Source of the DNA: Planctomycetota bacterium
GTDB lineage: Bacteria > Planctomycetota > Phycisphaerae > WQYP01
Direction: 5' to 3'
Assembly (NCBI GenBank): GCA_021785435.1
Contig: JAJYFE010000004.1
Location: 1 to 61,913, forward strand
DNA length: 61,913 nucleotides
The notes under the pieces: generated by a model
Seen by the model: only the letters and a program-made list of their open reading frames with translations
Databases searched by the model: none
Told to the model about the DNA's origin: nothing
Shown here: positions 27,125 through 42,769 of the stretch, in pieces
How positions within the stretch are numbered: position 1 is the first letter of the stretch
How the letters are laid out: every line of letters begins with the position of its first letter
Translations under genes and position numbers: made by a program

Positions 27125-27530
27125 CTATGTGGCGGGTGCCGGAAGGGCTCGGGCGCTGGCGCGGAAGGGGGCCGGGGCCGCTGGGCCGCGATGAGGCTTC
27201 CGGGATGGTCTAACAGGCACGCCGTGCCACAATGCGAGCACCGCTCGTAGAGCCGTGCCAATAGGTCGGCGAGGAGCAGGTCGATCGCGTTGTTGTGTTA
27301 CGAGCGTCTCCACGAGGAATGCCGCCGCGGCACCGTTGCGGCGCGGTTGGCGGATCGGTTGAACGCGGGGATCATCGCGTTGCAGTCGCTTGGTTGGCGC
27401 AGCAGCGTCCGCCGGTAAGGTTCCGTGGGCGCGGTGCCGTGGGTCATCTCCGCTCTCGGCCGAAGGCCCGTGTACCGCTGCACTTCGTACAGCGACAGCC
27501 TGGAAGCGGACCAGCAGTGGCCCGCCATTG
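27125..27530 (-). pseudogene. Decayed paralogue of the 34065..34817 gene (island-border remnant)
   Basis: The minus-strand reading ...PSDCNAMIPAF...RRS*HNNAIDLLLADLLARLYERCSHCGTACLLDHPGSLIAAQRPRPPSAPAPEP parallels ...ASDPCVTVGVS...GRRLADLLARLYERCSQGGEAGLLYWPGGLAAAPRPPSPFAPSPGP of the 250-aa protein at 34065..34817. It is interrupted by a TAA at 27295-27297. Confidence 0.45.
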
Positions 27531-27726
27531 GCTAAGCTTCGAGTACAGGCGTTTTAGCTTTAGGGGCGGTGTCGGCCGTTGCGAGCGTTCAAGGCCTGCG
27601 ACCCAGCAAGCCAGCCCACCCGAAACTCAAACCCACTGGTGCAAGCACCCGGCTTGCCGATTTTTTTCCAACCCAAGCGCCCGATGTGACAACTATTATT
27701 TTTGTTATATAATAGGAACGTAGTAG

Positions 27727-27755
27727 TTGACTGTAAAGTATATCGGAGTTATAGT
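27727..27755 (+). promoter_or_regulatory. Near-consensus sigma70 promoter abutting the start codon (possible leaderless mRNA)
   Basis: TTGACT (27727-27732), a 17-nt spacer, then TATAGT (27750-27755), set in a conspicuously AT-rich ~100-bp patch. In-frame ATGs follow at 27756 and 27765. Confidence 0.4.
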
Positions 27756-28439
27756 ATGAATGGCATGGAAAAACCTGGCCCAGACCGAGAGGCGCTGCGA
27801 CATCTCGCCGATACCGGTGAAGCGCCGAAAAAGGCGTTCGAGGTGCTGGCCAAGCGGCAGCGGAAACGGCGGGAACTGAGCTTGGAAGTTCTCATGCAGG
27901 AACTGCGGGCCGACGGGGTGGAGATTACCAGAGCCCAGGCTTACTCATTTTTCAAGGAGTTGGAGCGTTGCGGCTGTGGCAGAATTAAACTGGGGCGCGG
28001 CAGTCGCCCCACACGGTTCCGCTGGCGCTACACGATGCGATCCATCGCCCAGTTGGCGCTGGGCCAAACGGACACGGTCGAGATCATGCCGGAGCTGGAC
28101 GCCGAGGAAATAGACAACGGCGAGGGGACAGCCCCGGCGCCGCCCGACAATACAGCGCACCAGGACGGCCCGGCTCTGTGTGAGAAATATGAGAAAGCTA
28201 TGGGCCGGTCCGATCCGCAGGCCCCCGTGCCGTCCCCTCGCGAAGGCGGCATGGGGGACACGGCCACACCCAGTGACCGGGGTATTCGCATCGTGAACTA
28301 TCCATACCCGTTGCGGCCGGGGTTGCTGGTCTCAGTCTCCTTGCCGGTGGATATGACCACGCAGGAGGCGGAGAGGATGGCGGCGTATATCAAAACGTTG
28401 GCCGCGGCCACACCGCAAAAGGCGGCGTGCAGCCCTTAG
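27756..28439 (+). CDS. Hypothetical protein, possibly DNA-binding (only plus-strand gene at the island edge)
   Basis: ORF in the frame of track 27702..28439. N-terminal helical region (ITRAQAYSFFKELERCGCGRIKLGRG), an acidic/Pro-rich linker, and the C-terminal block YPYPLRPGLLVSVSLPVDMTTQEAERMAAYIKTL. Its stop overlaps the stop of the convergent HEPN gene. No family assigned. Confidence 0.5.
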   Translation: MNGMEKPGPDREALRHLADTGEAPKKAFEVLAKRQRKRRELSLEVLMQELRADGVEITRAQAYSFFKELERCGCGRIKLGRGSRPTRFRWRYTMRSIAQLALGQTDTVEIMPELDAEEIDNGEGTAPAPPDNTAHQDGPALCEKYEKAMGRSDPQAPVPSPREGGMGDTATPSDRGIRIVNYPYPLRPGLLVSVSLPVDMTTQEAERMAAYIKTLAAATPQKAACSP

Positions 28440-28819
28440 GGTAGCGGTGGGGCGAATATTTCGGGGTGGTCCTTTTTAAGGCCTTGAAGCGTCTCGGCCA
28501 CAGTACCGTGGACACCCGCCGGATTGTTCATCTCGTCGTCGTAGTCGGCTTGGTTCCTGTACTGGCGTAGGCGCCCCAGCTGCTCCCCCAGCCTTCGTCT
28601 GCCCATATCCGCACTGATTTTCAGCGTACGGACTACTTCTTGATGCACCTCCGCTTTGGTGGAGAACCTATGTCCTTCCGCTTCGAGGAACTGTCGCACC
28701 AAGTTGAACGCGCCGTAATATCCACGGCTGATACCCGCGCGCAGGCGAGCTTCCGCATTTCCGGCCATTGCATGCGGAGAATCGCACAGGAGCAGGAACT
28801 GGCGCCAGTCGAACCCCAT
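28436..28819 (-). CDS. HEPN-domain protein
   Basis: ISRGYYGAFNLVRQFLEAEGHRFSTKAEVHQEVV...LGRLRQYRNQADYD matches the classical HEPN pattern (sRaYYa.fha...G....H......R..adY). Its start is coupled to the upstream gene by TAATG. Confidence 0.65.
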   Translation of the reverse strand: MGFDWRQFLLLCDSPHAMAGNAEARLRAGISRGYYGAFNLVRQFLEAEGHRFSTKAEVHQEVVRTLKISADMGRRRLGEQLGRLRQYRNQADYDDEMNNPAGVHGTVAETLQGLKKDHPEIFAPPLP

Positions 28820-29547
28820 TAGGCATCAAGAAGAAAACAAATCAGGCTCCCCCGACTTTCCGGTTGCTGGAGCCACCATTCTGTGTCGAAACGACCAAGT
28901 TGTGCTAGTGCCCGTTGTGGGTCACCCCCCGGCCTGATGCGCACCAGAAGTTGTGTTAGGTCCGGGAGTTCCGGGTCGGTTTGCAGCTCGAGCATGGCGG
29001 TCGTAAGTGGACGAAAATACTCGCGGATAGGTTCGCGGGCCCGCGCCAGGAGGGTTCCGACGCCCGGGTGCGCGCTAAGAAAGGCACTAATTTGCGCCGC
29101 GCCGTGCGGTACGTAGCCATCGGGAATGACAGCGCTGTCGCGTTGGGCGTCAGCCCTTTGCCGGGCGGCCCTCTGGCTGGCGTCGCCGCAGAATTTTTCC
29201 GAAGCTTCGTCCGCGGGACTGTTTCCCGCGTAGCGCGTTATAGCCACGGCAAAGGCCTGCCAATCGGGTTGGGGCGCGGACCAGGCTGCGACGGTTTCAT
29301 AGGACCAGGTGACGACCAGGCCGCCCACATTCTCCAGTGCGAGCGACTGGGGCAGGCGCGCGTGTGCGGCGTTCAGCGTTTTCGCGGCGTCCCGGATGCC
29401 TCGCTTGTCGTACCGCACGCTCCGCCCGGGGCCGAACCGAAGCTCCGCTATTCCTTTCTCCATTTCCGGCCGCGCGGAAAACAGGGCCGTCGCACTGGCC
29501 GTTGGCCACTCACCGGAGATGCTGCTTCGCGGTAGTTGCTCGATCAT
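28819..29547 (-). CDS. Hypothetical protein X1 (no recognisable domain)
   Basis: The ATG at 29547 forms an ATGA overlap with the stop of the TIGR04255-like gene (tcat at 29544-29547). It ends in a TAATG overlap with the HEPN gene. The longer track ORF (to 29634) would overlap the upstream gene by 90 nt. Confidence 0.55.
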   Translation of the reverse strand: MIEQLPRSSISGEWPTASATALFSARPEMEKGIAELRFGPGRSVRYDKRGIRDAAKTLNAAHARLPQSLALENVGGLVVTWSYETVAAWSAPQPDWQAFAVAITRYAGNSPADEASEKFCGDASQRAARQRADAQRDSAVIPDGYVPHGAAQISAFLSAHPGVGTLLARAREPIREYFRPLTTAMLELQTDPELPDLTQLLVRIRPGGDPQRALAQLGRFDTEWWLQQPESRGSLICFLLDA

Positions 29548-30365
29548 GCTCTGCCCCACCATTGCTTCTGAACCTCGTGCGACGTCAGCCCCAGGAAGAC
29601 GCTGATCAGCGACTCGTGGGCCATGGCAAACCATTCTTTCATCGCCTCGTCTCCGGCCGCCTTCCCGAACCCGCGCGCCACCGACTCCATTATAATCAGC
29701 GGTTGTCCCGATTCCGCGCGGATGGCGGATTGTATCCTTATATGGGCTCGACCAAGCTCCTCCGGCAGTCCGAAGATCAGCCGATGTTCGAACCCCTCCG
29801 GATCGACCATGCGGCCGCGGCCGGGTGCCCTGAAGGCCACGTCCGGAAACACGCGCCTCGCCAACTGCGTGGGTGACACCGCCGCTTCGCTGGCATCAGC
29901 CGCGATGTGGTCAACATAGATCAACTCGTACTGTATGGCCTCGGCCGACCCGAGCTCATATTCGGCGAGAAAACCGCGAAATTCCACCAGGCGCTGCATA
30001 AACTGCACGAAGGTCGCATGATACTGTGGATACACCGTCTGCGCATCGGCCTTTCGCCAGTTGTAGACATAGCGGTCACGCTGTACCTGGATCAGCTTTT
30101 GACCATCCTTGCTCAGGTACCAGGTCCGGGGCAGTGGTGGCAGATTGGATATGGACAGCTGAATACTGGGAGAGGCGCTGCCTTGTTTAAGCTCAATTGT
30201 CGGCGATAAGGGCGGGGCCTCGCCGAATTGCGTAAAATCGGATTTCCATCGATCCCAGAGCACCCCAAGATGGGGTCCCGTCAGCTTCTGCAGCGGCGGG
30301 AAAAGCAGCCCCATCGCCACCTCGGCAACCGGCGGATTTTCAAAGTGCACCGGTTCTGCCAACAT
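29544..30365 (-). CDS. TIGR04255-like uncharacterised family protein (copy 1)
   Basis: 273 aa from the ATG at 30365: MLAEPVHFENPPVAEVAMGLLF... with mid-protein IQYELIYVDHI and a C-terminal WFAMAHESLISVFLGLTSHEV. The layout matches my memory of TIGR04255 and parallels the second copy at 44154..44885. The first 64 codons of the track ORF are Arg/Gly-rich junk. Confidence 0.5.
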   Translation of the reverse strand: MLAEPVHFENPPVAEVAMGLLFPPLQKLTGPHLGVLWDRWKSDFTQFGEAPPLSPTIELKQGSASPSIQLSISNLPPLPRTWYLSKDGQKLIQVQRDRYVYNWRKADAQTVYPQYHATFVQFMQRLVEFRGFLAEYELGSAEAIQYELIYVDHIAADASEAAVSPTQLARRVFPDVAFRAPGRGRMVDPEGFEHRLIFGLPEELGRAHIRIQSAIRAESGQPLIIMESVARGFGKAAGDEAMKEWFAMAHESLISVFLGLTSHEVQKQWWGRA

Positions 30366-30560
30366 CGTTCCGCCGCCACATAGCCCGCCCTCCATCCGGG
30401 TGCCGCTTACGCCAGCATGGTATCCCTTTTCATATCCTAATCGGGCGTTACCCGCCCAGCAACCACCTCGCGAACCTGGATAGCCGGCGGATGGGCGGCC
30501 GCGGCCGCCGAGGGGACGCCGCCCTTCACACCGAGGATGCGGGGACCTTTCCCGCACCCT

Positions 30561-31553
30561 TCAGCCGCCTTGAGGGCCGGCAGAGAGCGGGGGCGATTGG
30601 CCCGGCGGGATCGCTTCGGTGGCTGCGGCGCTGGGCGAAACAGGCGCGACAGTGACCTCGCTCTCCGCGCCCGGCCCTCGCGTTCCGGGTAGGGTGGATT
30701 CCACGTTGGAGTGGACGTAGCCCGTCAGGTTCTCGAATTTGGCGATGGTCTCCGCTATCTTCTTAAAGGGGACGACGATCGCCATGCCTGCATTTACATT
30801 TCCGCCGCCTGAACGGTCAGCGGCCGTTGTAGGGTCGACTTCATCGATGTCTACCGCTGCGGTGTCGAAGTGGCCGTGGATTAAGCCAAGCAGGAGGACG
30901 TTCGGTCCACCCGACTGAAACCGGAGATTGGCACCGAGCATCCGCACGGGGCCGAGGTTCAAAAACACCGGCGATCCGCTTAAGCCCCCGATCGAGCGGG
31001 CCTCAATCAGGTACGCGTCCATCGCCCCGAACGAAGGAGATACCAACACCTTGTCTTCGGGCATACACGCCAGGTTGCCTATTCTGACAACCGGCTCATT
31101 CTTCCGAGTCCCCGGATGGTAACGCAGCAGGCCTGTGACAAAAACCTCGTCGCCCAGCCCCACCTCGTTGGCTCTGAGCTTTTCTTCGTCGACGCACTGC
31201 GAATAAGGAAAAACAAGATGGTCGAGACCCTCGGGAATCCCCGCCCTCAAGATGGCCACGTCGACGGAGCCGTCGTCGGGATGGGAGAACCAGCCGGCGG
31301 CGTCGGTGGGAACCCATTTGGCCTGGCCGTCGGCGCAATTAACGCGGAGCAGGGGTTGGCCGTTACCCCGGTTTCGCACCCACTCGACCACATGCCTCGC
31401 CGTTACCGCGTAGACGGGATCCGCTCTTCTCCCGCCGGGCGTATCACGCCCGAGGAAGAACACGGAGCCCGCGAAACGGCGTTGCCCGCCGTCCTCGTAG
31501 CCGATAAAGGCAACGCACTTCCGGACCTCATCGGGAACAATCACGGGTCTCAC
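30561..31553 (-). CDS. Trypsin-like (S1/chymotrypsin-fold) serine peptidase
   Basis: Catalytic triad context: VYAVTARHVV (His), DVAIL (Asp), GGLSGSPVFL (Ser). GTG start at 31553. A C-terminal Pro/Ser-rich tail. Confidence 0.7.
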   Translation of the reverse strand: MRPVIVPDEVRKCVAFIGYEDGGQRRFAGSVFFLGRDTPGGRRADPVYAVTARHVVEWVRNRGNGQPLLRVNCADGQAKWVPTDAAGWFSHPDDGSVDVAILRAGIPEGLDHLVFPYSQCVDEEKLRANEVGLGDEVFVTGLLRYHPGTRKNEPVVRIGNLACMPEDKVLVSPSFGAMDAYLIEARSIGGLSGSPVFLNLGPVRMLGANLRFQSGGPNVLLLGLIHGHFDTAAVDIDEVDPTTAADRSGGGNVNAGMAIVVPFKKIAETIAKFENLTGYVHSNVESTLPGTRGPGAESEVTVAPVSPSAAATEAIPPGQSPPLSAGPQGG

Positions 31554-31559
31554 CTCATC

Positions 31560-31789
31560 TCAACCACCGCGCCGAAATTCCTCCAGCGTGGCATCCTTCA
31601 CTTCCTGCGCCACGATTGGGAAGGTGGACAGAATGTGGGCGAATTCTTCCTCGGTTAAGCCATACAGATGCGCGATGATCGCGTCCAATTCCGCCCGCAG
31701 TTTCAGCCGCTTCGCGGGATCGGTTACGCCGTCCTTGTGGCTTTTCAGACCCACCGACTTGGCCAGCTCATCAAATTCCGGCGTGGTGC
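31560..31789 (-). repeat. MTase 3-prime-end remnant V (direct repeat of 38388-38617)
   Basis: 31633-31789 matches 38461-38617 at 155/157 nt by my manual alignment. The distal 73 nt (31560-31632) are clearly more diverged. Encodes ...GLKSHKDGVTDPAKRLKLRAELDAIIAHLYGLTEEEFAHILSTFPIVAQEVKDATLEEFRRGG (track ORF 31560..31754). Confidence 0.9.
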
Positions 31790-31896: not shown

Positions 31897-32838
31897 CTAC
31901 CGAAACAGCGCCGTAACAGATCCGGTCATTCGCCAACGCGGGCGGTGCGCCACTTCTAACACTTGCTCCAAATTTGGCTTTCGATCCAGTGCCCGTCCGC
32001 GAATCGGTATGCCGCCGCGCTCGATGAAATGCGGATTCGCTTCCGCCGAGGGACCGGGCGATGCAAAATCAACCACAAATAACGGATGATGGCGTCTGAT
32101 CGCCTCATCGCCCGCCGCGAATGTGCCCCCCTCGTTTGCGGATTCCACCAGAATCATCCCGTCGGAAAGACCAATAATGGTGCGGTTGCGTTTCATGGCG
32201 TTGCGCGCGATCCAGGGGAGGCTCGGCGGGAATTGCGAAACAACCAGGTGCTTTCCCCGGCCCAGCACATCGGCAATCTCCTTCTTGACGCGGAAATGTC
32301 GGATGCCCTCGGCCACGACCATGATCGTCGCGCCACCGGCCTCCAGGGTGGCCCGGTGCGCCGCTAAATCCACGCCATGGGCGTAGCCGCTGACCACACA
32401 GATATTCTGGCGGGCCAGGGCCGCGGCAGCGTCGCGCGTGACCGCCAGGCCCTTGTCCGAAGCTTGGCGAGAGCCACAGAATCCCAACGCTGGCAGGTCA
32501 AAAAGTTCAGCCTCGCCTCTGAGGAAAAGAAAGGGTGGCGCCTCATCCCCCAGGATGGCCTTGAGGCGCGCCGGGTAGGCGTCATCTTCGATCCAGAGCA
32601 GCCGGACGCCGTGGAGTTGCAGGTTATCCCATAGCCGGGCCGCCGCGTCCCCTGATTTCCCGACGTTGGCGGCTGCCGGTTCCGAGACACCTAACACCTC
32701 CCTCAGGCGGGGCGGGTCCAAGCGAACGGCGTCGGCCGGGGAAATGCCTTCACCTGCGCAGTACCGGGCCAGGTGCCGCAGGGCCGCTTCCCCGACCCCT
32801 TTCGCCAGGATGAACTGTAACAGGGGAAGCGCGTTCAT
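31897..32838 (-). CDS. DprA/Smf-family (SLOG Rossmann) protein
   Basis: YPARLKAILGDEAPPFLFLRG...LGFCGSRQASDKGLAVTRDAAAALARQNICVVSGYAHGVDLAAHRATLEAGGATIMVVAEGI...RNRTIIGLSDGMILVESANEGGTFAAGDEA follows the DprA signature closely. The ATG is coupled by ATGA to the upstream PRTase gene. Confidence 0.85.
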   Translation of the reverse strand: MNALPLLQFILAKGVGEAALRHLARYCAGEGISPADAVRLDPPRLREVLGVSEPAAANVGKSGDAAARLWDNLQLHGVRLLWIEDDAYPARLKAILGDEAPPFLFLRGEAELFDLPALGFCGSRQASDKGLAVTRDAAAALARQNICVVSGYAHGVDLAAHRATLEAGGATIMVVAEGIRHFRVKKEIADVLGRGKHLVVSQFPPSLPWIARNAMKRNRTIIGLSDGMILVESANEGGTFAAGDEAIRRHHPLFVVDFASPGPSAEANPHFIERGGIPIRGRALDRKPNLEQVLEVAHRPRWRMTGSVTALFR

Positions 32839-33686
32839 TGGTTATCCGTGTCGCTCATTGATTTTACGCACACCAACCCGAAAACATATTTTGCCCCGAG
32901 GCTCTTCAAAAACTTAGCGCAACACCATAGCGTGACGCCGGACTGATATAGATCATCCACAACGGCCACCGTCCTGCCCCTTATGTCGGCATCGATTCGA
33001 ACGCACTGGCCGCGTTCGTATAACTCGCACCAGTGCTTCATCTTTTCCACGAAAGGCAAATTTTTCAGATAGGATTTTCCACAGCATAGGCTGCTTTGAA
33101 CAAGGGGAACGCCCTTGTCTTTCGCGACGCGCATTGCCAATTCTCTGCCGAAATTATACTTTTCCAGGTCGGATGGGACACCGGTGATCAGCAGATTGGT
33201 CTTTTCCTCGGGCGGTACGGGCAGGTAATCAAACGCCTCGACCATCGCCCTGCTCACAACGGAGCAATAGGCTTGGGACTGCCGGTATTTGGCCTGATAC
33301 AACGCCTCGCCAAACAATGTCCGCCTTTCCGAGTTTGGATCGTAGTTAAAAGACAGCCCCATGCAGAAATCCAGCTCTTGCGAAAAGCCGGGAGCGATGT
33401 GCCTGCTCAATCCGATCAGCACATATTCCTGGAATCTCTGTCTCCAGTTCTCGATCTGTTCAAGGTTTGCCTGGTTGAGTGCGCCGGCCGGAAACCAAAG
33501 GTATTTCATCTTGCCCCCCTTGGATACACGCCAGCCATTTGGGGCCAGCTTAGAGATTTGCGGGCAGTGGTAATCGAAAAGCCCCGGATAGGTGTCGCAG
33601 GAAACGAACAGGCTTATCGCACCATCGTCGTATTCGTTGAGATGACATTCGAGCTGTGACCGGCTGTGGGTGGTCCGTGGGATCAT
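32835..33686 (-). CDS. Phosphoribosyltransferase-domain protein
   Basis: C-terminal type-I PRTase PRPP loop RTVAVVDDLYQSGVTLW. The ATG at 33686 has GGAG 4 nt upstream. The N-terminal ~180 aa have no recognised domain. Confidence 0.7.
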   Translation of the reverse strand: MIPRTTHSRSQLECHLNEYDDGAISLFVSCDTYPGLFDYHCPQISKLAPNGWRVSKGGKMKYLWFPAGALNQANLEQIENWRQRFQEYVLIGLSRHIAPGFSQELDFCMGLSFNYDPNSERRTLFGEALYQAKYRQSQAYCSVVSRAMVEAFDYLPVPPEEKTNLLITGVPSDLEKYNFGRELAMRVAKDKGVPLVQSSLCCGKSYLKNLPFVEKMKHWCELYERGQCVRIDADIRGRTVAVVDDLYQSGVTLWCCAKFLKSLGAKYVFGLVCVKSMSDTDNQ

Positions 33687-33921
33687 TTTTCTCCACCTGC
33701 TGCCAGCACCGGCGGTGCGGAACAGTGTTCCACCGTTTGAGCCGGCTGCCGACCGGGCGTTGCCGGGCCGCGGGTCACACGCATCCGCAGCTGGGTGCCG
33801 CAATTATAAACCACATACGGCCAACGGTCATGCTTCAGGCGCATTATTCACATTTTTTCCCGGTCGAAGATATTCCCAACTCGCCGGGTAATTGTCCACC
33901 GGGGTAGGCCGGCGGCTCGCC

Positions 33922-34071
33922 TCAATTGGTGCGTTTGAAGTCCTCAAGCGTCGCCCGTTTCACTTCCTCTGGCACGATCGGAAACGTCCCCAATATGTGG
34001 GCGAATTCTTCCTCGGTTAAGCCGTACAGATACGCGATGATCGCGTCCAATTCCGCCCGCAGTTTCAGCCG
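33922..34071 (-). repeat. MTase 3-prime-end remnant IV
   Basis: 33971-34071 is 101/101 identical to 38437-38537 by my manual alignment. The distal tail 33922-33970 is diverged. Encodes LKLRAELDAIIAYLYGLTEEEFAHILGTFPIVPEEVKRATLEDFKRTN. Confidence 0.9.
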
Positions 34072-34817
34072 ACCAGCCCCGACAACGACAACTGCTGGAA
34101 GCCTTCGGCGTCGACGATCGCCACCGGAACGAACGCCTTCAGCGAAACCCACTCGCTAAGCGCACGCCGCGGGAGCCGGCCCGCCCGCAGCTGAATTTCC
34201 CCAAGCGTCCGGGGGGCCTGCCACTCTCCCCGGGCTTCGACGGGGTCGCCGGGTTGGTGCGATGCGGGCCCGGGCGATGGCGCGAAAGGGGACGGGGGCC
34301 GCGGGGCCGCGGCGAGGCCCCCAGGCCAATACAACAGGCCTGCCTCGCCGCCTTGCGAACACCGCTCGTAGAGCCGCGCCAGTAAATCAGCAAGGCGCCG
34401 GCCCGCATCCCGACAGTCATCCTCCATGGTTGCAGCAGGGGTGTCAGCCGACACGCCGACGGTCACGCACGGGTCGCTCGCGAGGCGAAGCTTCCCCTGC
34501 GCCAAGCCGTCGGGCGGGAACAGATAGGCCATCGTGGCGATCCCCCGAACCGCGATGTCTTCCCGGACCAGTTCGTCGCGCCAGCCTGGTCCGACGCCGG
34601 AGGGCTGCGCGGGCGCATCGATAAGCTGCCGGTAGTCCAAGGCGAACAGCGGGTTGGGCGCGCCGAGAAGGTGCAGCACGGCGTGGAACCCCCGGCTGCA
34701 CGGGGACCATAGCCGCGTCGGCGCGGCCGGGGTTGCGGCGAGTGCCTCGCGGAACGCGCTTTCCAGCGCCGTGCTCCACTGCTCGGGCGTACCCGCCCGC
34801 CTCCCCGCCTGGCTCAC
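34065..34817 (-). CDS. Hypothetical protein (third gene of the HipA-like module)
   Basis: 250-aa ORF starting 11 nt after the HIRAN-like gene. No recognised domain. Its TGA stop (34065-34067) lies inside remnant IV, in a different frame from the MTase tail. A decayed paralogue sits at 27125-27530. Confidence 0.5.
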   Translation of the reverse strand: MSQAGRRAGTPEQWSTALESAFREALAATPAAPTRLWSPCSRGFHAVLHLLGAPNPLFALDYRQLIDAPAQPSGVGPGWRDELVREDIAVRGIATMAYLFPPDGLAQGKLRLASDPCVTVGVSADTPAATMEDDCRDAGRRLADLLARLYERCSQGGEAGLLYWPGGLAAAPRPPSPFAPSPGPASHQPGDPVEARGEWQAPRTLGEIQLRAGRLPRRALSEWVSLKAFVPVAIVDAEGFQQLSLSGLVG

Positions 34818-34827
34818 CGACGTTCTC

Positions 34828-35601
34828 CTAAACGGCCCAGTCCCGTATTGAATTAAATTCCTCCCCGGTCATTGGATCGTGGCCCTCCGGCCACTGGCCC
34901 GTGAGTTCGATCAGGAATCGCTGGTGGGTAGGTGCACCGGGTGGGTTTCGTCTGACCAGGCGGGCTTGGGCGCCAGCGGCCCCGCCCGCCGCGGGGGCGA
35001 GGACTTCTGCCACGTAACGCGGCGCCCAGCCGACCACGTGTGCATCCCGCGGTCGCCCTGGCGACTCTTCGATCCGCAGTTCAACCGCCGGTTCCATTGC
35101 CGGGCCATCTCGGCGCACCGCCACGCGCAGCGGCTCATCGGCGCCAAGCTCGGCAAGCCGGGCTTGCGCGGCCTGCGTGGTGCGCCGCCAACCACGGAGG
35201 AAGAACCGGCACCGGAAACTTCGATCGGCCCCTGCTTCGAGCTTGGGAAATACCTCCAGATTGTCCGTCTGGCGCCGCCCGCCTGTTAGCGCCAGCAACG
35301 TTAAAGGGTCGGCCTCTTCGGGGCGCAGGTCCAGCAGCTTCAGGTACTCCGCATATTCCTCGCGCGTGGGGGAAAGGACCCGATTGCGAAAGAGGGGGAA
35401 TAACTCGTCCGCCTCGTAGCGCCACCCGAGGTACGGGAACGCCTCCAGCGGCCGCCACCCGGCCTCCTGTGCCGCCAGTTGGGCGCCCTGCGTGTACCAG
35501 AAGCAATAATGGCATGCTGCGGGATCGGCTTCGAGCCGGCCGATGGGGTACCAGCGCCGCATTTGCACCGGGCTCTGCCACGCCAGGAACAGGCTCGTCA
35601 T
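34828..35601 (-). CDS. HIRAN-like domain protein with conserved N-terminal WYPIGRL domain
   Basis: From the ATG at 35601 (ATGA overlap with the HipA-like stop): MTSLFLAWQSPVQMRRWYPIGRLE...YCFWYTQGA...ELFPLFRNRVLSPTREEYAEYLKLLDL...DPLTLLALTGGRRQTDNLEVFP, then FFLRGWRR...GADEPLRVAVRRDG...AVELRIE...HVVGWAPRYVAEVL. This resembles proteins I recall as annotated HIRAN domain-containing. Confidence 0.5.
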   Translation of the reverse strand: MTSLFLAWQSPVQMRRWYPIGRLEADPAACHYCFWYTQGAQLAAQEAGWRPLEAFPYLGWRYEADELFPLFRNRVLSPTREEYAEYLKLLDLRPEEADPLTLLALTGGRRQTDNLEVFPKLEAGADRSFRCRFFLRGWRRTTQAAQARLAELGADEPLRVAVRRDGPAMEPAVELRIEESPGRPRDAHVVGWAPRYVAEVLAPAAGGAAGAQARLVRRNPPGAPTHQRFLIELTGQWPEGHDPMTGEEFNSIRDWAV

Positions 35602-36542
35602 ACCTTGACCTTCCTCAACTCCGCCATTGTATAGCGCAGGACATCCCGACAGAAGTCCTTCTGAATAGCGGTCATGCACGTGTTGGGAACCCGATCGACT
35701 GGCAAGATCACGCGGGCTTCTTCGAGGGCCCGCAACTTTTCGAGCCATGGCTTCGCCAAGGCGGGGTCCTCCTGGGCGAGACGCCGCAACAGCGCCATTG
35801 GGCTGGGGCCGCACCGCGCGTGCGCGTCCCAGTAGATTCCGCCACGGCCTCTTTCCACGTATTGTCCGATGCGTCCGTGGCGTATCAACTCAAGGCGCCG
35901 GGCGTCGGTCAGTTCGCGCCCAAGGGAGGAAGCATGGTCGTAAGAAGGGGCCACGGAAATTTCGACGTCCACGGGACCATCCCGGCGGGTCTCCAGGATC
36001 GCCCAATTTTCGTGGTGGCGATCGGTATTGCCGATCCAAGCGTCGAACACGATCAGCCCCACCAGCTGCGCCAGATAGGGCCGGGCGCCGCTCTCGGGAA
36101 AGCGGGCTTCGACTGCCTTGCGAATGTTGGCCCAGCGGTGATCGGCCTGCCCGCGACGCTTGGCCTTATCGTAGCCCGTCACCCATTTCCCCAGGAGCTC
36201 GTTTCCATGGACAAGCTCGCCCAGCCGAATGTGATGCGAAAAGGGGTCATATTGATGGGGAATAAAGGACCGGGAGGCGGTTCCGACCACCCCCTGGTAG
36301 CGTGCCAACTCCACCCGCGCCACCGGCAGGCCGATCAGGGGCGCTAGTTCGGCGGCAATTTTCTCCGCCCAATGCTCGCCCGTTCCCGGCCGTGGGTACT
36401 TAAAAAGCCACCGGCGGGGGTCGCTGTCGACAGAAAACCAGAATTTGGTCTTGGTCCCAAACAACTCCGTGTCAAGCCGCTGGAAATCGTGCCGACCCTC
36501 CCGCAAGTCCCAAACGTCGTACTCACCGGGCTCGCCACTCAT
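35598..36542 (-). CDS. HipA-like Ser/Thr kinase domain protein
   Basis: Catalytic-loop motif DAWIGNTDRHHENWAIL (HipA_C-like). Upstream GTKTKFWF...LFKYPRPGTGEHWAEKIAAELA. No HipB-type HTH gene is adjacent. Confidence 0.7.
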   Translation of the reverse strand: MSGEPGEYDVWDLREGRHDFQRLDTELFGTKTKFWFSVDSDPRRWLFKYPRPGTGEHWAEKIAAELAPLIGLPVARVELARYQGVVGTASRSFIPHQYDPFSHHIRLGELVHGNELLGKWVTGYDKAKRRGQADHRWANIRKAVEARFPESGARPYLAQLVGLIVFDAWIGNTDRHHENWAILETRRDGPVDVEISVAPSYDHASSLGRELTDARRLELIRHGRIGQYVERGRGGIYWDAHARCGPSPMALLRRLAQEDPALAKPWLEKLRALEEARVILPVDRVPNTCMTAIQKDFCRDVLRYTMAELRKVKV

Positions 36543-36730
36543 GGGGGCTGCGCTCCCTTAAATCTGCGAAATTCCTCCATCGTCGTGTGTTTCACTTCCT
36601 GCGGCACGATCGGAAACGTCGCGAATATGTGCGCGAATTCCTCTTCGGCTAAGCTGTGCCAACGGGCGATAATGGCGTCGAGCCCGGCGCGGAGCCGGGG
36701 CCGCCCGAATCTTCCATCCCTTGGCGAGGC
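36539..36730 (-). repeat. MTase 3-prime-end remnant III (diverged)
   Basis: My translation gives RDGRFGRPRLRAGLDAIIARWHSLAEEEFAHIFATFPIVPQEVKHTTMEEFRRFKGAQPP*, against the MTase tail KDGVTDPAKRLKLRAELDAIIAYLYGLTEEEFAHILGTFPIVPQEIKDATLAEFTRHV. Its frame ends in a TGA that overlaps the ATG of the HipA-like gene. Confidence 0.7.
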
Positions 36731-37671
36731 TGTAATGGGATGGCCCCACCTGGAGCCAAAGCCATGACCTGCTGTTTTATTAATCTGGCGCCCTCGTGGT
36801 TCTCAATGATTTTGAATGCGGCGCTGTTCATGAGGGCGTGCATGTAGCAATGATGAACGGTTAGCACCAAATCCTGGAGTTGCTGGTCCTCTTCAATCAG
36901 GACGACTTTCAGGCCCATCTTTATGCACTCGTCGGCGTGGATATGCCTGCTGTGGGCCTTGTGGCTGCGGTAGTCGGCGAGCCTTCTGGCTATCTTCGAC
37001 GCTTTGGCATCCGCGTCGGGCTCACCGGCGAACATGACTTTCGACAGCTGCTCACGTACGAAGCCATTGGACCAGTCGATGGCGTTGGAGCACTGCCCCA
37101 GAAAGGTGGGATGATATTTTCCGATAATAGGCTGCCAGACCGCGGCCCTGGCGGGGTCGGATTTAATTTCCTTGACCGCCTGCTTGAATTCCCGTATCAC
37201 ACCCTGGGCGGGAACTCCACGTACCTGTGGGTCAATAGGACCGAGATTAGACTGCTTGCCCATCAATATTTCCCTGCACGAGCAAGCCATGACCGTACCC
37301 GCCGACATGGCGATTTGCGGCACGATAGCGCGAATGTTGCGGTCGAACATTTTTTGCAGGTAGTCAACGATGGACTGGGTGGACGCAATATCACCCCCCG
37401 GCGTGTGCAGGATGAGATCTAGCCCCTGGCTCCGATCGAGCTTATGCACGGCCATCATGAAGCCGTTTTTGTCTTCATCGTTTATCTCCGCGCCGACGAT
37501 CTGCGGCTTGGAAAGCCAGCCCGAATAATAGGCAATAATGTTACGTGTCGTGCGCTGATGAAGCTGGCCAAGGTACTTTTTTCGAACCGAGTCCAAAGCC
37601 TGCTGGGCCATCGCCTGGTGGCTGAGGATTTCTTGATTAATCTCGTTTTGGACATCGCCCCAATTCGGCAT
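36649..37671 (-). CDS. SDH-family ClpP-fold serine protease (SppA/ClpP-like)
   Basis: LDLILHTPGGDIASTQSIVDYLQKMFDRNIRAIVPQIAMSAGTVMACSCREILMGKQSNLGPIDPQ matches the serine dehydrogenase proteinase family pattern. The last ~27 codons are read from remnant III in a different frame, so the native C-terminus may be replaced. Confidence 0.7.
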   Translation of the reverse strand: MPNWGDVQNEINQEILSHQAMAQQALDSVRKKYLGQLHQRTTRNIIAYYSGWLSKPQIVGAEINDEDKNGFMMAVHKLDRSQGLDLILHTPGGDIASTQSIVDYLQKMFDRNIRAIVPQIAMSAGTVMACSCREILMGKQSNLGPIDPQVRGVPAQGVIREFKQAVKEIKSDPARAAVWQPIIGKYHPTFLGQCSNAIDWSNGFVREQLSKVMFAGEPDADAKASKIARRLADYRSHKAHSRHIHADECIKMGLKVVLIEEDQQLQDLVLTVHHCYMHALMNSAAFKIIENHEGARLIKQQVMALAPGGAIPLQPRQGMEDSGGPGSAPGSTPLSPVGTA

Positions 37672-38019: not shown

Positions 38020-38130
38020 ACTTAAATTCCGCCATCGCCGCGTCGTCCACCCCCTGCGGCACAATGGGAAATGTCCCCCCAACATGTGCGCGAACTCTGC
38101 TTCGGTTAAGACGTACAAATGGGCGGTGCT
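38020..38130 (-). repeat. MTase 3-prime-end remnant II (diverged, frameshifted)
   Basis: Two track ORFs carry its halves: ...AHLYVLTEAEFAHMLGG (37927..38292) and GGTFPIVPQGVDDAAMAEFKSRMRH (37985..38176). One extra C in gtcccccc causes the frame change. Confidence 0.6.
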
Positions 38131-38387: not shown

Positions 38388-41300
38388 TTAAACGTGCCGG
38401 GTAAATTCCGCCAACGTGGCATCCTTGATTTCCTGCGGCACGATCGGAAACGTCCCCAATATGTGGGCGAATTCTTCCTCGGTTAAGCCGTACAGATACG
38501 CGATGATCGCGTCCAATTCCGCCCGCAGTTTCAGCCGCTTCGCGGGATCGGTTACGCCGTCCTTGTGGCTTTTCAGACCCACCGACTTGGCCAGCTCATC
38601 AAATTCCGGCGTGGTGCAGATCAGCCGCGCGGCACGTTCCACAATCGGTGCGAAGGCCGGGTCTTTCTCGGTCAGGCGCGGGACGGGCAGTTGGTAGACG
38701 TAGAAGAAGTTCACGTTGGCCGAGACTCGCTGGCGAATGATGTAGTCCAACGCCAAGGCGTCGAGGATGGCGGCAGCCCACAGGCGGACAGGGCCATGCG
38801 CGAGCCAAACGCCGTCCGCAGCGGCGAACTCGCCCGCCTGGAAACTGTTGGCGCAAAACGACGGCGGGGCGACCGTTGTTACCAGCGTCCGCTGGTCCGT
38901 GTTTCGTGCGATGTTCCTGAACCCCAGCCGGTAATCCTGATAATCCAATTTCTGGCCCGTGTCCGGCGTGCGGCCCAGGATTCTTGCCCGGCCCTTCTTT
39001 TCATCCACCCAATAGCGCGGCGGGGCCAGCTGATGATCGAACTGCCAGATCATTTTGCCTTCATACAGCGGCAATTTTCCTTTGCCCGGACTGGTCTCAA
39101 ACAAATCGCTGTCGTTCGTCATGTTGAGCTCCTGGGCGAACCGTACGTTCCAATTGCCTTGGATTTTTTCGCCCAGCAGCGGGAATTTCAGCATCTTTTC
39201 CGCGATCTGCACATCCAGATCGCACTTGAATTCCATGATGGAAAGCGAATCCGGCGAAAGCCGCCGCACCAGATCAACGGCTATCTCCAGGCCTCCCTGC
39301 CGGGGAAAACCCTCCAGTTCGGCCACATCGTGGCGCATGAACGCGGCAGGAAATTCCACCGTCTGGCCGCCCTTTTGAAAGGTCAAAACGACGAACTTGA
39401 AACTACGGTGCACGCCCTCAAAGATTTCCTTGCGATTCTCAAAACCAAACAGGCCAGTGATGTGGGTTTCTTTAAACAGCATTTCCCGCAACTGCTTGCT
39501 GCCCAAATCGGTATAAATGCCGGAGGGAATCACAATACCGCAAAGCCCGCCGGGGCGCAGCAGGTTGAAGCACTGTTCGGTGAACAACTTGTATAGGTTA
39601 ATCTTCGAAGCCGGGGTGCGCCCGCTGGCGTCGGTTGACAGCTGGTTTGGGTATTGGGCGGAGAGCTTAAAATACCTCGACGGGTGGGGAAACTCGCTGG
39701 AGTATGCAAGCCACGCCTCCCGCACTCTGCGATCTTCCATTATCGCGGCGCGCTGGGCCACCCAGTCCTCGATGCGGAGGCTCTTCTTGGTAATTGAGGG
39801 AATGTATTCTTGGAAAAATTCTTTCTCGTCGGTCTGGAAGACCTCCCACGGCGGATTGGTGATGATGGCGTCGAAGCCGCCGTTTTTATTTAGCACCCGG
39901 TCGAATTCAAAGCCCCAATGAAACGGTTTCAGTCGCTGGATATCGGCCAGGCCCAGCGGTCGCTTCTTCGGCCGGCCCTGAACCTTTTTCACCCCATCCC
40001 ACGTCGCCTGCTCGAACTTGATCCCCAGCCGCTCGAACTCGCCGAGCAGCAGGTCATCGAGCACGGCGGCGCAGGCGCGCTTGAGGGAATCGATGTTGTT
40101 GCGCAGGGCGGTTAAATCGTCGGCGTAGGTAGCTGTCCGGCGATAGTTGTCAATCCGCCGATTTTTGTCTTGCAGAATTTCCTGGTATGTCCGCTGGCGG
40201 AACAGCTGCCCCTGTTTTTGTTCAAACGATTTATCATCCACCCGCATCAGGCCGATGAGCGAATTGCCGGGCAGAATGTTAAAGTCGATATTCGGCAGCG
40301 GCTCGAGCTGATCGACGGTTTCGGCGGAGGAACCCAGCGCCAGAAACAACCGCAGGCGGGCGATTTCCACGGCCTCTTCCATCAAATCCACGCCGAAAAG
40401 ATTATCCGTAATGATGCATTTCTTGATGAAGTAGTCGATGTTGGAGTGCTTTTTTTCGATGTCGGCCAGCCAGGCGGAAAGCTCGGGATCATGCAGAAAT
40501 TTAATCTGGCCGATGATGGGAGAATAAATGCCGATCAGCGTATTCATGGCGGCCACCAGAAAGGCCCCTGATCCGCAGGCCGGATCCAGCAGTGACAGAT
40601 TCGGCAAAACATCATGGATCAGCTTGTGACACAGCGGGGCATCGAGATCAATCAGCAGATCGGCCACCGACTCATAACGGCGGGTTTTTACCCCCGCCAG
40701 GGTCGGCACGCCGGGGGACGTGTTGGCGGCGTCGAGAATCAGGCGGTGGATGGTCCGTTCGCAGAGATATTCCGTGATTTCCGGGCGGGTGTAATAGGCG
40801 CCGAAGGCTTTCTGGTTGATATATTGCTCAAAGATGTAGCCGAGAACGTGCGGGCTGATTTCGCGGTCATTTTCGCCGGGCGCGTCGTTAAGATTCCAGG
40901 AATAGGAGGCGAACAGCTGGAAAAGTTTATCGAAGAAGGCGTCAGGAATGGCGATATTCTGGTTTTCGGTTTCGATGCGGTGCGGCAGAAACAGGCCGCC
41001 GTTGAGGTAGCGGATGTTGCCGAGCTCGGTACGGGCGGCGGGCGAGCGTTTTTCCGGCGGTTTGGCGAAGCCTTCAAAGAAAAGCAGTTGCAGAAAATCG
41101 CGGTAAAAGCGTTCGGGGCCCTGGCGGCGGGAGGCCTGCAGCTTACGCTGCAGGTAGTCGATATCGCCGTCACGGGCTTGGGCGTCCCGGTAGTCGAGAA
41201 ACCCCTTGCGCTGCAGGAAATAGATGAACATCAGGCGGTTTAAGAGAATGGAGGCGTACCAGCGGCGATCGTGGTCCGTGGGTATGCCCTGGATCAGCTC

Positions 41301-41939
41301 CACCAAGTTGTCGTGGATACCCTCGAATTCCCTGAAAAAGCGTTTGGTGACCCGTTGGACATCCAGCGCCGCCTGGAGTCGCTGCGTAACTTCGGTCAGT
41401 TTGATGCGTCCATCGGAATCAAATTCCGAGATGTCAAAATGGATGGCGCCCAATTTGCTGATGAACAGATCGCCGGGCTGGCCGGCGGCGAAGAGATGCT
41501 CGCGCGGCACGGTTTTGCCATTTTCACGCTTGACCCAGCGCCAGAGGCTTTGGGTGCCGTTGGCGTCAACGAAAATCAGGAGGCATTCATACTGCAGCTG
41601 GGAGATTCCCTTATGGATGGCGGCGCGGGTTGGGGCGTCGGGTATGGCGGCGGATTCAACTTGATAAACGCCCACGCCGGCCAGATCGGCAATATGGCGG
41701 CGGGTAAGCTGAAGGCCATCGATGGCCATGGGAATCCCGTCGCGGCGGCCGGGGGGCGGATTCGACCAGCCCAAGTGTTCGATGAACAGCTCGCCGAATT
41801 TAAATTGGCGCAGGCATTCGCGCACGGCGGGAAAATTCAACCGCGCGGCGGCATTGGGCCGGGCATGAAGATTCTCCGTGCCCGGGGCGAGTTCGCGGTG
41901 GAGGGTAGACATGACGGCAATTATGGCCGAGGTGCGCAC
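38388..41939 (-). CDS. Eco57I/PglX-like gamma-class N6-adenine DNA methyltransferase, type IIG-like large protein
   Basis: Motif X AFGAYYTRPEIT, motif I LLDPACGSGAFLV, motif IV ITNPPWEVF, the N-terminal block ILLNRLMFIYFLQRKGFLD, and a long C-terminal TRD-like region ending LYGLTEEEFAHILGTFPIV. The track start is GTG at 41939; an alternative ATG is at 41912. Confidence 0.85.
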   Translation of the reverse strand: MRTSAIIAVMSTLHRELAPGTENLHARPNAAARLNFPAVRECLRQFKFGELFIEHLGWSNPPPGRRDGIPMAIDGLQLTRRHIADLAGVGVYQVESAAIPDAPTRAAIHKGISQLQYECLLIFVDANGTQSLWRWVKRENGKTVPREHLFAAGQPGDLFISKLGAIHFDISEFDSDGRIKLTEVTQRLQAALDVQRVTKRFFREFEGIHDNLVELIQGIPTDHDRRWYASILLNRLMFIYFLQRKGFLDYRDAQARDGDIDYLQRKLQASRRQGPERFYRDFLQLLFFEGFAKPPEKRSPAARTELGNIRYLNGGLFLPHRIETENQNIAIPDAFFDKLFQLFASYSWNLNDAPGENDREISPHVLGYIFEQYINQKAFGAYYTRPEITEYLCERTIHRLILDAANTSPGVPTLAGVKTRRYESVADLLIDLDAPLCHKLIHDVLPNLSLLDPACGSGAFLVAAMNTLIGIYSPIIGQIKFLHDPELSAWLADIEKKHSNIDYFIKKCIITDNLFGVDLMEEAVEIARLRLFLALGSSAETVDQLEPLPNIDFNILPGNSLIGLMRVDDKSFEQKQGQLFRQRTYQEILQDKNRRIDNYRRTATYADDLTALRNNIDSLKRACAAVLDDLLLGEFERLGIKFEQATWDGVKKVQGRPKKRPLGLADIQRLKPFHWGFEFDRVLNKNGGFDAIITNPPWEVFQTDEKEFFQEYIPSITKKSLRIEDWVAQRAAIMEDRRVREAWLAYSSEFPHPSRYFKLSAQYPNQLSTDASGRTPASKINLYKLFTEQCFNLLRPGGLCGIVIPSGIYTDLGSKQLREMLFKETHITGLFGFENRKEIFEGVHRSFKFVVLTFQKGGQTVEFPAAFMRHDVAELEGFPRQGGLEIAVDLVRRLSPDSLSIMEFKCDLDVQIAEKMLKFPLLGEKIQGNWNVRFAQELNMTNDSDLFETSPGKGKLPLYEGKMIWQFDHQLAPPRYWVDEKKGRARILGRTPDTGQKLDYQDYRLGFRNIARNTDQRTLVTTVAPPSFCANSFQAGEFAAADGVWLAHGPVRLWAAAILDALALDYIIRQRVSANVNFFYVYQLPVPRLTEKDPAFAPIVERAARLICTTPEFDELAKSVGLKSHKDGVTDPAKRLKLRAELDAIIAYLYGLTEEEFAHILGTFPIVPQEIKDATLAEFTRHV

Positions 41940-42182: not shown

Positions 42183-42728
42183 CTATTTCCGGGGGATCAC
42201 CCGCATGACGACAATCTCGCAAAGCATGCCGCTCTGGTTGTGGATATACCGATCCGCCGCGGCAATCGCCGCCTGGTCATGCAGGTAGCGATCACTGCCG
42301 CCCCGGGTCCACCAACGGCGCGGCGCTCCGGCGGCTTCGCTCAAGGCGGCGCTGCTTACGCCCTTGATCACACGCCGCACGGCGGGGCCGTCAGCGGGAC
42401 AGTTCGTTATGAGGCTGTGGATATGATTGGCCATGCACGCGGCGCGGAGGATAACCCAGTCGCGTTCGACGGCGGCCTGGCGGATAGCCTCGGCGGCGAC
42501 GCGGGATTCCGCTTGCGTCAACCAAACTGTGACGTGCTCTTGAAATCTCCTGGCGGCGGCGAGGGTGGCCGGATCATCCTGACCGCACGGCGTGCCGCGC
42601 TGGTTCCGCTTTCGCTCGTATGCTCCGCCAGGCAACAGCGTGTTGGAAACATAGCCGCGTGGATCACCAGGAAGCCAGGTGCCGTAGGTGGTCCAAGTGA
42701 TGAACAGGGCGAAAGGCGATACGGGCAT
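42183..42728 (-). CDS. REP-associated tyrosine transposase-like protein (IS200/IS605 Y1 HUH family)
   Basis: FITWTTYGTWLPGDPRGYV N-terminal block, HUH motif MANHIHSLI, and catalytic Tyr context RYIHNQ. Flanked on both sides by REP hairpins. I chose the ATG at 42728; the track's GTG at 42749 lies inside a REP. Confidence 0.7.
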   Translation of the reverse strand: MPVSPFALFITWTTYGTWLPGDPRGYVSNTLLPGGAYERKRNQRGTPCGQDDPATLAAARRFQEHVTVWLTQAESRVAAEAIRQAAVERDWVILRAACMANHIHSLITNCPADGPAVRRVIKGVSSAALSEAAGAPRRWWTRGGSDRYLHDQAAIAAADRYIHNQSGMLCEIVVMRVIPRK

Positions 42729-42748
42729 GGGCGCTCCGTCGGATGACA

Positions 42749-42769
42749 CCGCCGGGATAAACCCGGCGG
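42749..42769. repeat. REP hairpin, inverted orientation (CCGCCGGG-ATAAA-CCCGGCGG)
   Basis: Same stem as 41964 with the loop reverse-complemented. Immediately upstream of the RAYT gene. Confidence 0.85.

Follow-up and report, generated by a model that had tools for sequence, protein, structure and literature searches.

A TIGR04255-led candidate three-component toxin-antitoxin triad with exchangeable effectors, independent of its neighbouring serine protease, in a Planctomycetota defence island

Several described systems resemble the locus considered here. In toxin-antitoxin-chaperone (TAC) systems a SecB-like chaperone is combined with HigBA, MqsRA, HicAB or CmdTA, and such systems lie on mobile elements and have in some cases been shown to act in phage defence (PMC6377645, PMC11618068, bioRxiv 10.1101/2024.02.24.581848). 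In tripartite regulator-antitoxin-toxin systems the extra first gene is a regulator (PMC10627512), and in Panacea one conserved domain family, PanA (DUF4065), is combined with many unrelated toxin domains (PMC8832971). PDC-M05, finally, is a toxin-antitoxin (TA)-like candidate consisting of a minimal nucleotidyltransferase (MNT) and a HEPN protein (PMC12988326). We analysed a stretch of 61,913 nucleotides from a Planctomycetota bacterium (GCA_021785435.1, contig JAJYFE010000004.1; hereafter the window), in which a gene of the TIGR04255 family is followed by a gene that we call X1 and by a HEPN-like gene. Tripartite TA systems are a known kind, and the TIGR04255 version with its predicted new antitoxin domain appears undescribed: a literature search outside the subscription journals for TIGR04255, CHP04255, IPR026349 and 9XBD returned nothing relevant and no paper mentioning TIGR04255, in keeping with an earlier reading of the sequence alone (the first-pass annotation), which knew of no defence or TA system built on this family. 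In the 2013 HEPN survey (PMC3710099), the four terms searched gave nothing on a partner resembling the C-terminal domain of X1.

The minus strand of the window carries four co-directional open reading frames (ORFs), at the coordinates of the first-pass annotation, which had joined all four into one candidate module. In the order of transcription they are a trypsin-like serine protease gene (30561-31553, 330 aa), the TIGR04255 gene (gene 1; 29544-30365, 273 aa, with ATG 30365 as a start that agrees with the homologues), X1 (gene 2; 28819-29547 from ATG 29547, or to 29562; 242 or 247 aa), predicted to be a modular antitoxin, and the HEPN-like gene (gene 3; 28436-28819, 127 aa), predicted to be the toxin. 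The stop codon of the TIGR04255 gene overlaps the start of X1 in the sequence ATGA (29547-29544), and the stop of X1 overlaps the start of the HEPN-like gene in TAATG (28821-28817), both junctions being found as annotated. Between the stop of the protease gene (30561) and the start of the TIGR04255 gene (30365), by comparison, lie 195 nt (30366-30560). Translational coupling is confined to the last three genes, TIGR04255, X1 and HEPN-like.

The protease is a stand-alone gene related to PDC-S45, and sits between a repeated methyltransferase remnant (remnant V, 31575-31789, direct-repeat families D1-D3, which marks the upstream edge of the cassette) and the triad cassette. Its assignment to Trypsin_2 in the first-pass annotation stands only in part: no Pfam family, and hence neither Trypsin nor Trypsin_2, matches at E up to 1, while the catalytic triad can be read from the sequence as TARH54VV, SVD98VAIL and GGLS192GSP, in the His/Asp/Ser order and with the motifs typical of the PA clan. 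The protein matches PADLOC PDC-S45 with E 4.3e-10 (residues 12-275 on profile positions 22-285 of 293), a single-gene defence system of candidate status only (PMC12429752). A plasmid relative, 27% identical, is annotated as 'serine protease'; PDB sequences, viral contigs and an exact-sequence look-up gave no match. In contigs from close relatives (loci L001-L005) the triad is present without the trypsin-like protease, its proteins being 96% (TIGR04255), 89% (X1) and 99% (HEPN-like) identical to those of the window. By BLASTN, window positions 30608-27145 match these relatives at 92% nucleotide identity, with a clean breakpoint at 30608; the 966 nt in which nearly all of the protease gene lies are thus an indel between the window and the close relatives, and the final 16 codons of the protease ORF run into the shared sequence. 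In L002, the repeat derived from the methyltransferase 3' end immediately precedes the triad block, and this repeat copy itself follows a protease of a different type (SDH). No protease homologue was found by phmmer among all ORFs of 173 related loci. Because of the 195-nt gap, the absence of the gene from near-identical relative loci and the lack of homologues in the 173 loci, we place the protease outside the unit, and consider a triad architecture that excludes it highly probable.

The grouping of all four genes was not borne out by these comparisons. If they nevertheless formed one system, the serine protease would process or degrade X1 or the TIGR04255 protein and thereby free the HEPN toxin. 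Protease-triggered toxin release occurs in other defence systems, the four genes are adjacent and co-directional, and in L001-L003 another protease, SDH ClpP-like, lies upstream of the triad. That protease, however, keeps beside the methyltransferase and not the triad in both genomes. The trypsin-like protease matches a single-gene candidate, is separated from three overlapping genes by a gap, and is missing both from the near-identical cassettes beyond position 30608 and from the 173 loci, all of which argues against a four-gene system and makes it very improbable.

The other three genes remain together well beyond the close relatives. In L006, a TIGR04255 protein 55% identical to that of the window is followed by overlapping X1 and HEPN homologues, and the same holds for L007-L009 and L014 (Planctomycetota metagenome-assembled genome, MAG), with a TIGR04255 protein 49% identical. 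Compared with the window, X1 in these loci is 26-28% identical, mainly in its C-terminal part, and the HEPN protein 51-61%; the flanking genes are unrelated and the contexts differ. We then used a profile of the HEPN family to scan species-representative genomes, which gave 80 loci from cyanobacteria, Chloroflexota, Planctomycetota, archaea and others. An iterated TIGR04255 hidden Markov model (HMM) placed a TIGR04255 gene against the pair formed by the HEPN gene and the C-terminal domain of X1 in 14 of the 80, and found none elsewhere in these loci. The 14 loci belong to Planctomycetota, Chloroflexota, Melainabacteria and Deferribacteres (at least four phyla) and to further MAGs. In a check against NCBIfam, 16 of 32 candidate proteins encoded upstream were recognised as TIGR04255. 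The linkage of the three genes is far beyond chance, and conservation in other genomes was found for precisely the last three of the four annotated genes.

X1 by itself at first looks like a singleton: a word-indexed homologue search retrieved one cluster only, 89% identical. An exhaustive phmmer search, by comparison, gave 513 representative clusters (at 50% identity), with every match restricted to residues ~140-241. We refer to these C-terminal ~100 aa (28822-29130 on the minus strand, about residues 140-241), which are predicted to neutralise the HEPN-like protein, as X1C. Proteins that match X1C are mostly 100-250 aa long. The domain has no relative in Pfam, PADLOC or PDB and no PADLOC model of its own. 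Its AlphaFold2 (AF2) model has a core with pLDDT above 90 and an alpha/beta arrangement of the order helix-helix-strand-strand-helix-strand, and Foldseek returned neither a significant match nor any nucleotidyltransferase among the matches. We also considered X1C as a degenerate MNT and rejected this, as Pfam, PADLOC, PDB profile search and Foldseek gave no support; Pfam and PADLOC likewise detected no nucleotidyltransferase in X1 and 45 X1C relatives. The remark of the first-pass annotation that the usual MNT partner is missing here is thereby upheld. As judged from sequence comparison, X1 would be a modular protein, with a variable N-terminal part joined to a predicted antitoxin domain, and X1C would be an antitoxin-like domain that is widespread but carries no annotation.

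X1 is no orphan, a point that the first-pass annotation had missed: genes of this HEPN family are regularly accompanied by X1C. Of the 81 HEPN-like genes in the 80 loci, from bacteria and archaea, 78 have an X1C gene immediately upstream of them, typically with an overlap of 4 or 11 nt, and 64 of these 78 pairs occur without TIGR04255. Some genomes contain several copies (L017, L049 and L075, for example, come from one MAG). Small overlapping genes, a patchy multi-copy distribution and plasmid and prophage locations are TA-like genomic signatures, and the pairing has the appearance of a two-gene TA cassette, with X1C where MNT would otherwise stand. We consider it likely that genes 2 and 3 form an antitoxin/toxin pair.

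The HEPN assignment of gene 3 holds at the level of profiles and not at that of curated models. With an E-value limit of 1, the sole Pfam match was a spurious one to VEG, and NCBIfam gave none. On the other hand, the protein matches PADLOC PDC-M05B (E 3.9e-5), a four-sequence family profile finds two PDB entries named 'HEPN domain-containing protein' (9xbd_A, E 1e-4; 9xbc_A, E 7.5e-4), hhalign aligns the family with a PF05168 protein of L007 (E 1.5e-4, probability 52%), and the PGAP label on relatives from Gloeothece plasmids is 'HEPN domain-containing protein'. Conserved in the family are SRGYYGAF, H59 and R88-N-x-A-D-Y93. The motif reads R88-N-Q-A-D-Y93 in the window protein and has an invariant Tyr throughout the family, so that R-x4-6-H is not present. 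The PF05168 HEPN of L007 also has R-x4-Y, which suggests that this form is typical of that HEPN subclass, though not the canonical His. The MAE_18760 HEPN family was considered as an identity for gene 3 and rejected, since its partners and fusions differ. Like the HEPN-MNT systems (type II/VII; PDC-M05), the window has a small R-x4-[HY] HEPN gene downstream of its partner and overlapping it, and PDC-M05B is the best PADLOC match of gene 3; unlike them, its partner is X1C and not a minimal nucleotidyltransferase, and there is a third gene. A Planctomycetota MAG (L007:2802-3532, L009:3343-5432) has the triad next to one or two classical MNT-HEPN pairs, adjoining cdsA.

HEPN, PIN, Fic and zeta are established families of TA toxins, and the genes led by TIGR04255 include all four. 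The two TIGR04255 proteins of the window both exceed the curated NCBIfam cutoff (30 bits, whole-protein score), with 48.1 bits for the first (29544-30362, profile positions 2-251 of 252) and 100.5 bits for the second (44154-44885), which confirms the family assignment; they are not alignable with each other by BLASTP. The second gene heads the Fic module that had already been described 14 kb away, and this module (43128-44885, minus strand) is itself a triad: the TIGR04255 stop overlaps, again by ATGA, a 135-aa middle gene (43750-44157) that the first-pass annotation had missed, followed by Fic (43128-43784; Pfam 1e-9, with PADLOC PDC-S04 and SoFic matches). The middle gene has no Pfam match and is presumed to encode the cognate antitoxin or an adaptor for Fic. 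Both TIGR04255 loci of the island are triads.

A metagenome scan with the TIGR04255 subfamily of the window confirmed 520 relatives, of which 80 loci at 34-41% identity were kept, and gene order was scored in the 46 that had at least 1.3 kb of downstream DNA. An abutting, co-directional gene 2 and gene 3 followed TIGR04255 in 42 of the 46. Gene 3 belonged to an unannotated ~195-aa family in 18 of the 42 loci and was HEPN-like in 12, DUF7689 in four (Pfam 3e-38), PIN in three (Pfam 6e-9) and of other kinds in five. L109, with a HEPN-like third gene, and L104, with one of the 195-aa family, have lead proteins that are 69% identical; since such similar TIGR04255 proteins head different toxins, effector cassettes have been exchanged behind closely related lead genes. 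On a Vibrio parahaemolyticus plasmid TIGR04255 is followed by a 179-aa gene and a zeta toxin. Two small abutting genes also follow TIGR04255 on plasmids of Crinalium and Mycobacterium paragordonae, in a P2-like Ralstonia prophage and on an integrase-flanked viral contig, and in 13 of 14 further IMG/VR loci. Comparative genomics supports the earlier suggestion of TIGR04255 as a common component combined with swappable effectors, the third genes comprising HEPN-like, PIN, DUF7689, ~195-aa, Fic, zeta and ~150-aa families. In having one conserved family beside many unrelated toxins the triads are like Panacea; PanA, however, is itself the antitoxin of two-gene systems, whereas TIGR04255 is encoded by a gene of its own, the third of the system, and it is the middle gene that varies with the toxin.

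Could the adjacency of the three genes be fortuitous, unrelated small genes having been packed into a defence island? Defence islands pack unrelated systems tightly, and this one does. But the stop/start overlaps and the gene order are kept across phyla, plasmids and prophages (78/81, 14/80, 42/46, 13/14), and because the linkage is conserved, this explanation is effectively refuted for the triad.

Two of the third-gene families deserve separate description. The ~195-aa family occurs at L095:3020-3601, L103:2858-3514 and in 22 further loci, and no other gene 3 is as frequent in the metagenome sample. Its members share Cys, Asp and His at invariant positions and, likewise invariant, a C-terminal LLPPYREHLSQAFARFFMRVGLP; the family has no match in Pfam or PDB and is put forward as a candidate for a new toxin. 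The ~150-aa family, to which gene 3 belongs in many of the prophage and plasmid triads (L178:1621-2061, L179:5366-5764, L182-L193), has an invariant Arg (R[HRY]VP), an invariant Ser (LSV) and a nearly invariant His (N.AH), again with no Pfam or PDB match; its closest members (L178, L179, L180-L183) have a gene 2 partner with a WDGYG-type motif. Some TIGR04255 loci (L010:2432-3553, L013:1535-2650, L179:2446-3693) come directly after a phage-type integrase and a short divergent ORF, with the full triad in L010 and L179 and a contig end at the TIGR04255 gene in L013. It would appear from this arrangement that certain triads move as small integrative islets.

What the second genes of different triads have in common lies at their N-termini. 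Their C-terminal parts differ according to the toxin, whereas the N-termini can be aligned between classes (HEPN, 195-aa, PIN, DUF7689 and others) and contain, 25-35 residues from the start, a stretch resembling ATT[TS]T, often with a Trp before it and acidic residues after it. In X1 the counterpart is EWPTASATA, in an N-terminal region (approximately 29400-29500, minus strand) that is a candidate contact element for TIGR04255. A Thr-richness score of 6 or more was found in 53% of triad gene 2 proteins, 14% of stand-alone X1C proteins and 8% of other ORFs, and the motif as a regular expression matched 29 of 78, none of 65 and 22 of 1021 of these, respectively. N-terminal extensions have a median of 54 aa in triads and at most 35 aa in pairs, with overlapping ranges. 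A large gene 2 cluster from the metagenomes was tried as an X1C relative and rejected (hhalign probability 0.2%). In the single-linkage grouping of metagenome gene 2 proteins by BLAST, over-extended ORFs that overlap gene 1 may contribute.

TIGR04255 has no Pfam match and no sequence relative in PDB. Its AF2 model (pLDDT 81.6, pTM 0.82) shows two repeats in tandem, in both of which a beta-sheet packs against a long helix. Foldseek against PDB gave weak matches only, the best being McsB and the TBP core (both E 3e-3), followed by helix-grip proteins (Bet v 1, START, PYL) and CYTH; in a viral structure library TFIID/TBP-like giant-virus proteins matched at E ~6e-4 and one unnamed protein at 5e-7. 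From the model we read the fold as a predicted TBP-like/helix-grip pseudo-dimer. Residues invariant in the subfamily of the window include E14, R79, W81, an IQVQRDR stretch and NW.

On balance, the explanation that we favour overall is an independent protease next to a TIGR04255-led TA triad in which TIGR04255 controls the antitoxin. Gene 3, of the R-x4-Y HEPN type, would be a growth-arresting toxin, most likely an RNase, and X1 would neutralise it through X1C, a pairing that would work without a third gene in the two-gene cassettes. TIGR04255 would act on the antitoxin and not on the toxin, probably by binding the Thr-rich N-terminal extension of gene 2, and would thus set the stability or availability of the antitoxin and with it the time of toxin release, upon phage infection or element loss. 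The part of this scheme in which TIGR04255 is a post-translational controller acting through the N-terminus of gene 2 is put forward tentatively, its chance being in our estimate somewhat short of even. The logic would resemble that of the chaperone in TAC systems, with which the triads share the number of genes, the combination of one conserved third component with several unrelated TA families, and a location on mobile elements; the candidate short addition to the antitoxin, apart from the toxin-binding domain and proposed to connect the antitoxin with the third component, would be a further likeness. They differ in that TIGR04255, modelled as a TBP-like/helix-grip tandem repeat, lacks similarity to SecB, in that it is encoded first while the third component of TAC is last, and in that the candidate addiction element is N-terminal and Thr-rich here and is the C-terminal ChAD in TAC.

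A number of points weigh against this explanation. The Thr-rich motif was defined post hoc on phylogenetically related sequences and is a lead, not proof; clear Thr-richness scores occur in only about half of triad gene 2 proteins, the motif of X1 is degenerate (TASAT), and the N-terminal extensions of some triad X1 proteins are no longer than those of stand-alone X1C proteins. RNase activity of the HEPN-like protein is uncertain because Y93 stands in place of the canonical His and Pfam has no HEPN match. TIGR04255 has no PADLOC match or model, all of its Foldseek matches in PDB are weak (TM 0.36 or lower), and neither Pfam nor the 50 best Foldseek PDB matches listed show likeness to SecB or a known chaperone. 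A TBP-like fold, as modelled, may fit DNA binding equally well.

The last point leads to another explanation, in which the operon is of the regulator-antitoxin-toxin kind and TIGR04255, as the counterpart of omega, HipB or PaaR2, binds DNA and autoregulates it, acting on the promoter instead of on the antitoxin protein. The order of the genes is that of omega-epsilon-zeta, HipBST and PaaR2-PaaA2-ParE2, which share the extra first gene, and one TIGR04255 triad ends in a zeta toxin; the predicted tandem TBP-like fold with its weak matches to the TBP core and to viral TFIID/TBP proteins would suit a DNA-binding protein, and X1C antitoxins have no recognisable DNA-binding domain. The 195-nt region upstream (30366-30560), the likely site of the triad's own promoter or operator, is moreover co-inherited with the triad in relatives that have no protease. 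A scan of this region for sigma-70 promoters and terminators found nothing, the consensus being uninformative for this lineage. However, the TBP matches are weak (E 3e-3 to 6e-4, TM about 0.3) and those to Bet v 1/START, CYTH and McsB are similar, two-gene X1C-HEPN cassettes do without TIGR04255, and the N-terminal motif of gene 2 across toxin classes suggests a protein-protein link that a pure repressor would not need. With 250-270 aa the protein is also large for a TA repressor: the first genes of the three named systems are small ribbon-helix-helix or helix-turn-helix repressors tied to one toxin family, while in TIGR04255 (~250 aa) no DNA-binding motif is recognised and its triads span seven or more gene 3 families. 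We regard such an autoregulatory role of TIGR04255 as unlikely.

TIGR04255 could instead be an enzyme that covalently modifies the toxin or antitoxin in a type VII-like manner and stands in for the MNT of HEPN-MNT modules, with the Thr-rich stretch of gene 2 or Tyr93 as substrate. The invariant polar residues E14, R79, Q92, Q94, D96, R97 and N101 cluster on strands of the first repeat, there is weak fold likeness to the protein arginine kinase McsB and to CYTH/triphosphate-tunnel enzymes, the AMPylating MNT is missing from its usual place beside this HEPN type, and the Thr-rich motif could be a modification site. But the position of MNT is held by X1C and not by TIGR04255, which 64 of the 78 X1C-HEPN pairs lack. 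Furthermore, we identified no nucleotide-binding or catalytic motif, the fold matches are below significance, and a single TIGR04255 clade is combined with unrelated toxins, a point against an enzyme specific for one toxin. Modification is in our judgement decidedly improbable. Returning to control of the antitoxin, we suggest, as a generalisation held more loosely than the role of the gene 2 N-terminus, that TIGR04255 proteins may define a large and hitherto unrecognised class of three-component TA or abortive-infection systems, made up of a universal TBP-like controller or sensor, a short portable Thr-rich tag that it would recognise at the N-terminus of modular antitoxins, and pluggable cassettes (HEPN, PIN, Fic, zeta, DUF7689 and two or more unknown toxin families), in which X1C would be a new HEPN-specific antitoxin that replaces MNT.

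The triad lies in a defence island between pilus/type II secretion system genes and cdsA (50346-51263 in the window). The island contains HKD-Snf2, an HTH-M78+DUF4411 pair, a type IIG-like methyltransferase, the SDH ClpP-like protease, a PDC-M03A/B pair, a PsyrTA/ShosTA-like pair and Fic. Downstream of the type IIG methyltransferase gene (38388-41939), five copies of its 3' end separate the defence cassettes (copies at 38403-38617, 38023-38078, 36570-36694, 33937-34151 and 31575-31789), and cassette content and order at the same site differ between the window and L001-L003. The site looks like a cassette-exchange hotspot with the methyltransferase 3' end as recombination target. A second direct repeat (27145-27280 and 34266-34401, 76% identity) is found at the distal ends of two cassettes, and L001-L003 have it as well; possibly it marks a common cassette end or a terminator region. 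Since the triad of the Planctomycetota MAG described above also adjoins cdsA, 74% identical in nucleotides to that of the window, the cdsA-adjacent site is a conserved hotspot in the lineage.

At the 3' side of the triad, a convergent ORF of no assigned family (27702-28439, plus strand, 245 aa) overlaps the stop of the HEPN-like gene by 4 nt. It has no Pfam or NCBIfam match, is present as a 229-aa gene in the close relatives L001, L002 and L004, and has no counterpart next to the triad in L006, L007 and other loci; only close relatives have inherited it together with the triad. Among the other cassettes, a HipA-like kinase pair (34828-36542, minus strand; PADLOC PDC-M03A 3e-81, PDC-M03B 5e-62) is followed by an unannotated 250-aa ORF of the same cassette (34065-34817), and a phosphoribosyltransferase and DprA-like pair (31897-33803, minus strand) with matches to PsyrT/PsyrA and ShosT/ShosA (PsyrA 2e-56) forms its own cassette between two methyltransferase remnants. 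The SDH-type ClpP-like serine protease (36649-37671, minus strand) lies directly downstream of the methyltransferase in the window and in the relatives (L001:3799-4800 and L002:3933-4934, 85% nucleotide identity); PADLOC does not match it, and its function may be connected with the methyltransferase/HKD-Snf2 system. An ORF that weakly resembles a REP-associated tyrosine transposase/IS200-like protein (42183-42749, minus strand; NCBIfam 8e-8, below cutoff) lies between the methyltransferase and the Fic triad.

These results provide the first functional context for TIGR04255, a 'sporadically distributed' family, and, next to the SecB-based TAC systems, would supply a second case in which a single conserved protein has been enlisted for the control of many unrelated TA pairs. 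X1C, with more than 500 clusters at 50% identity, is identified as a regular HEPN partner in cyanobacteria, Chloroflexota and archaea, and at least two unannotated gene 3 families are flagged as candidate new toxins. With their presence on plasmids, in P2-like prophages and in defence islands, the triads are plausible phage-defence or addiction modules that Pfam and PADLOC miss.

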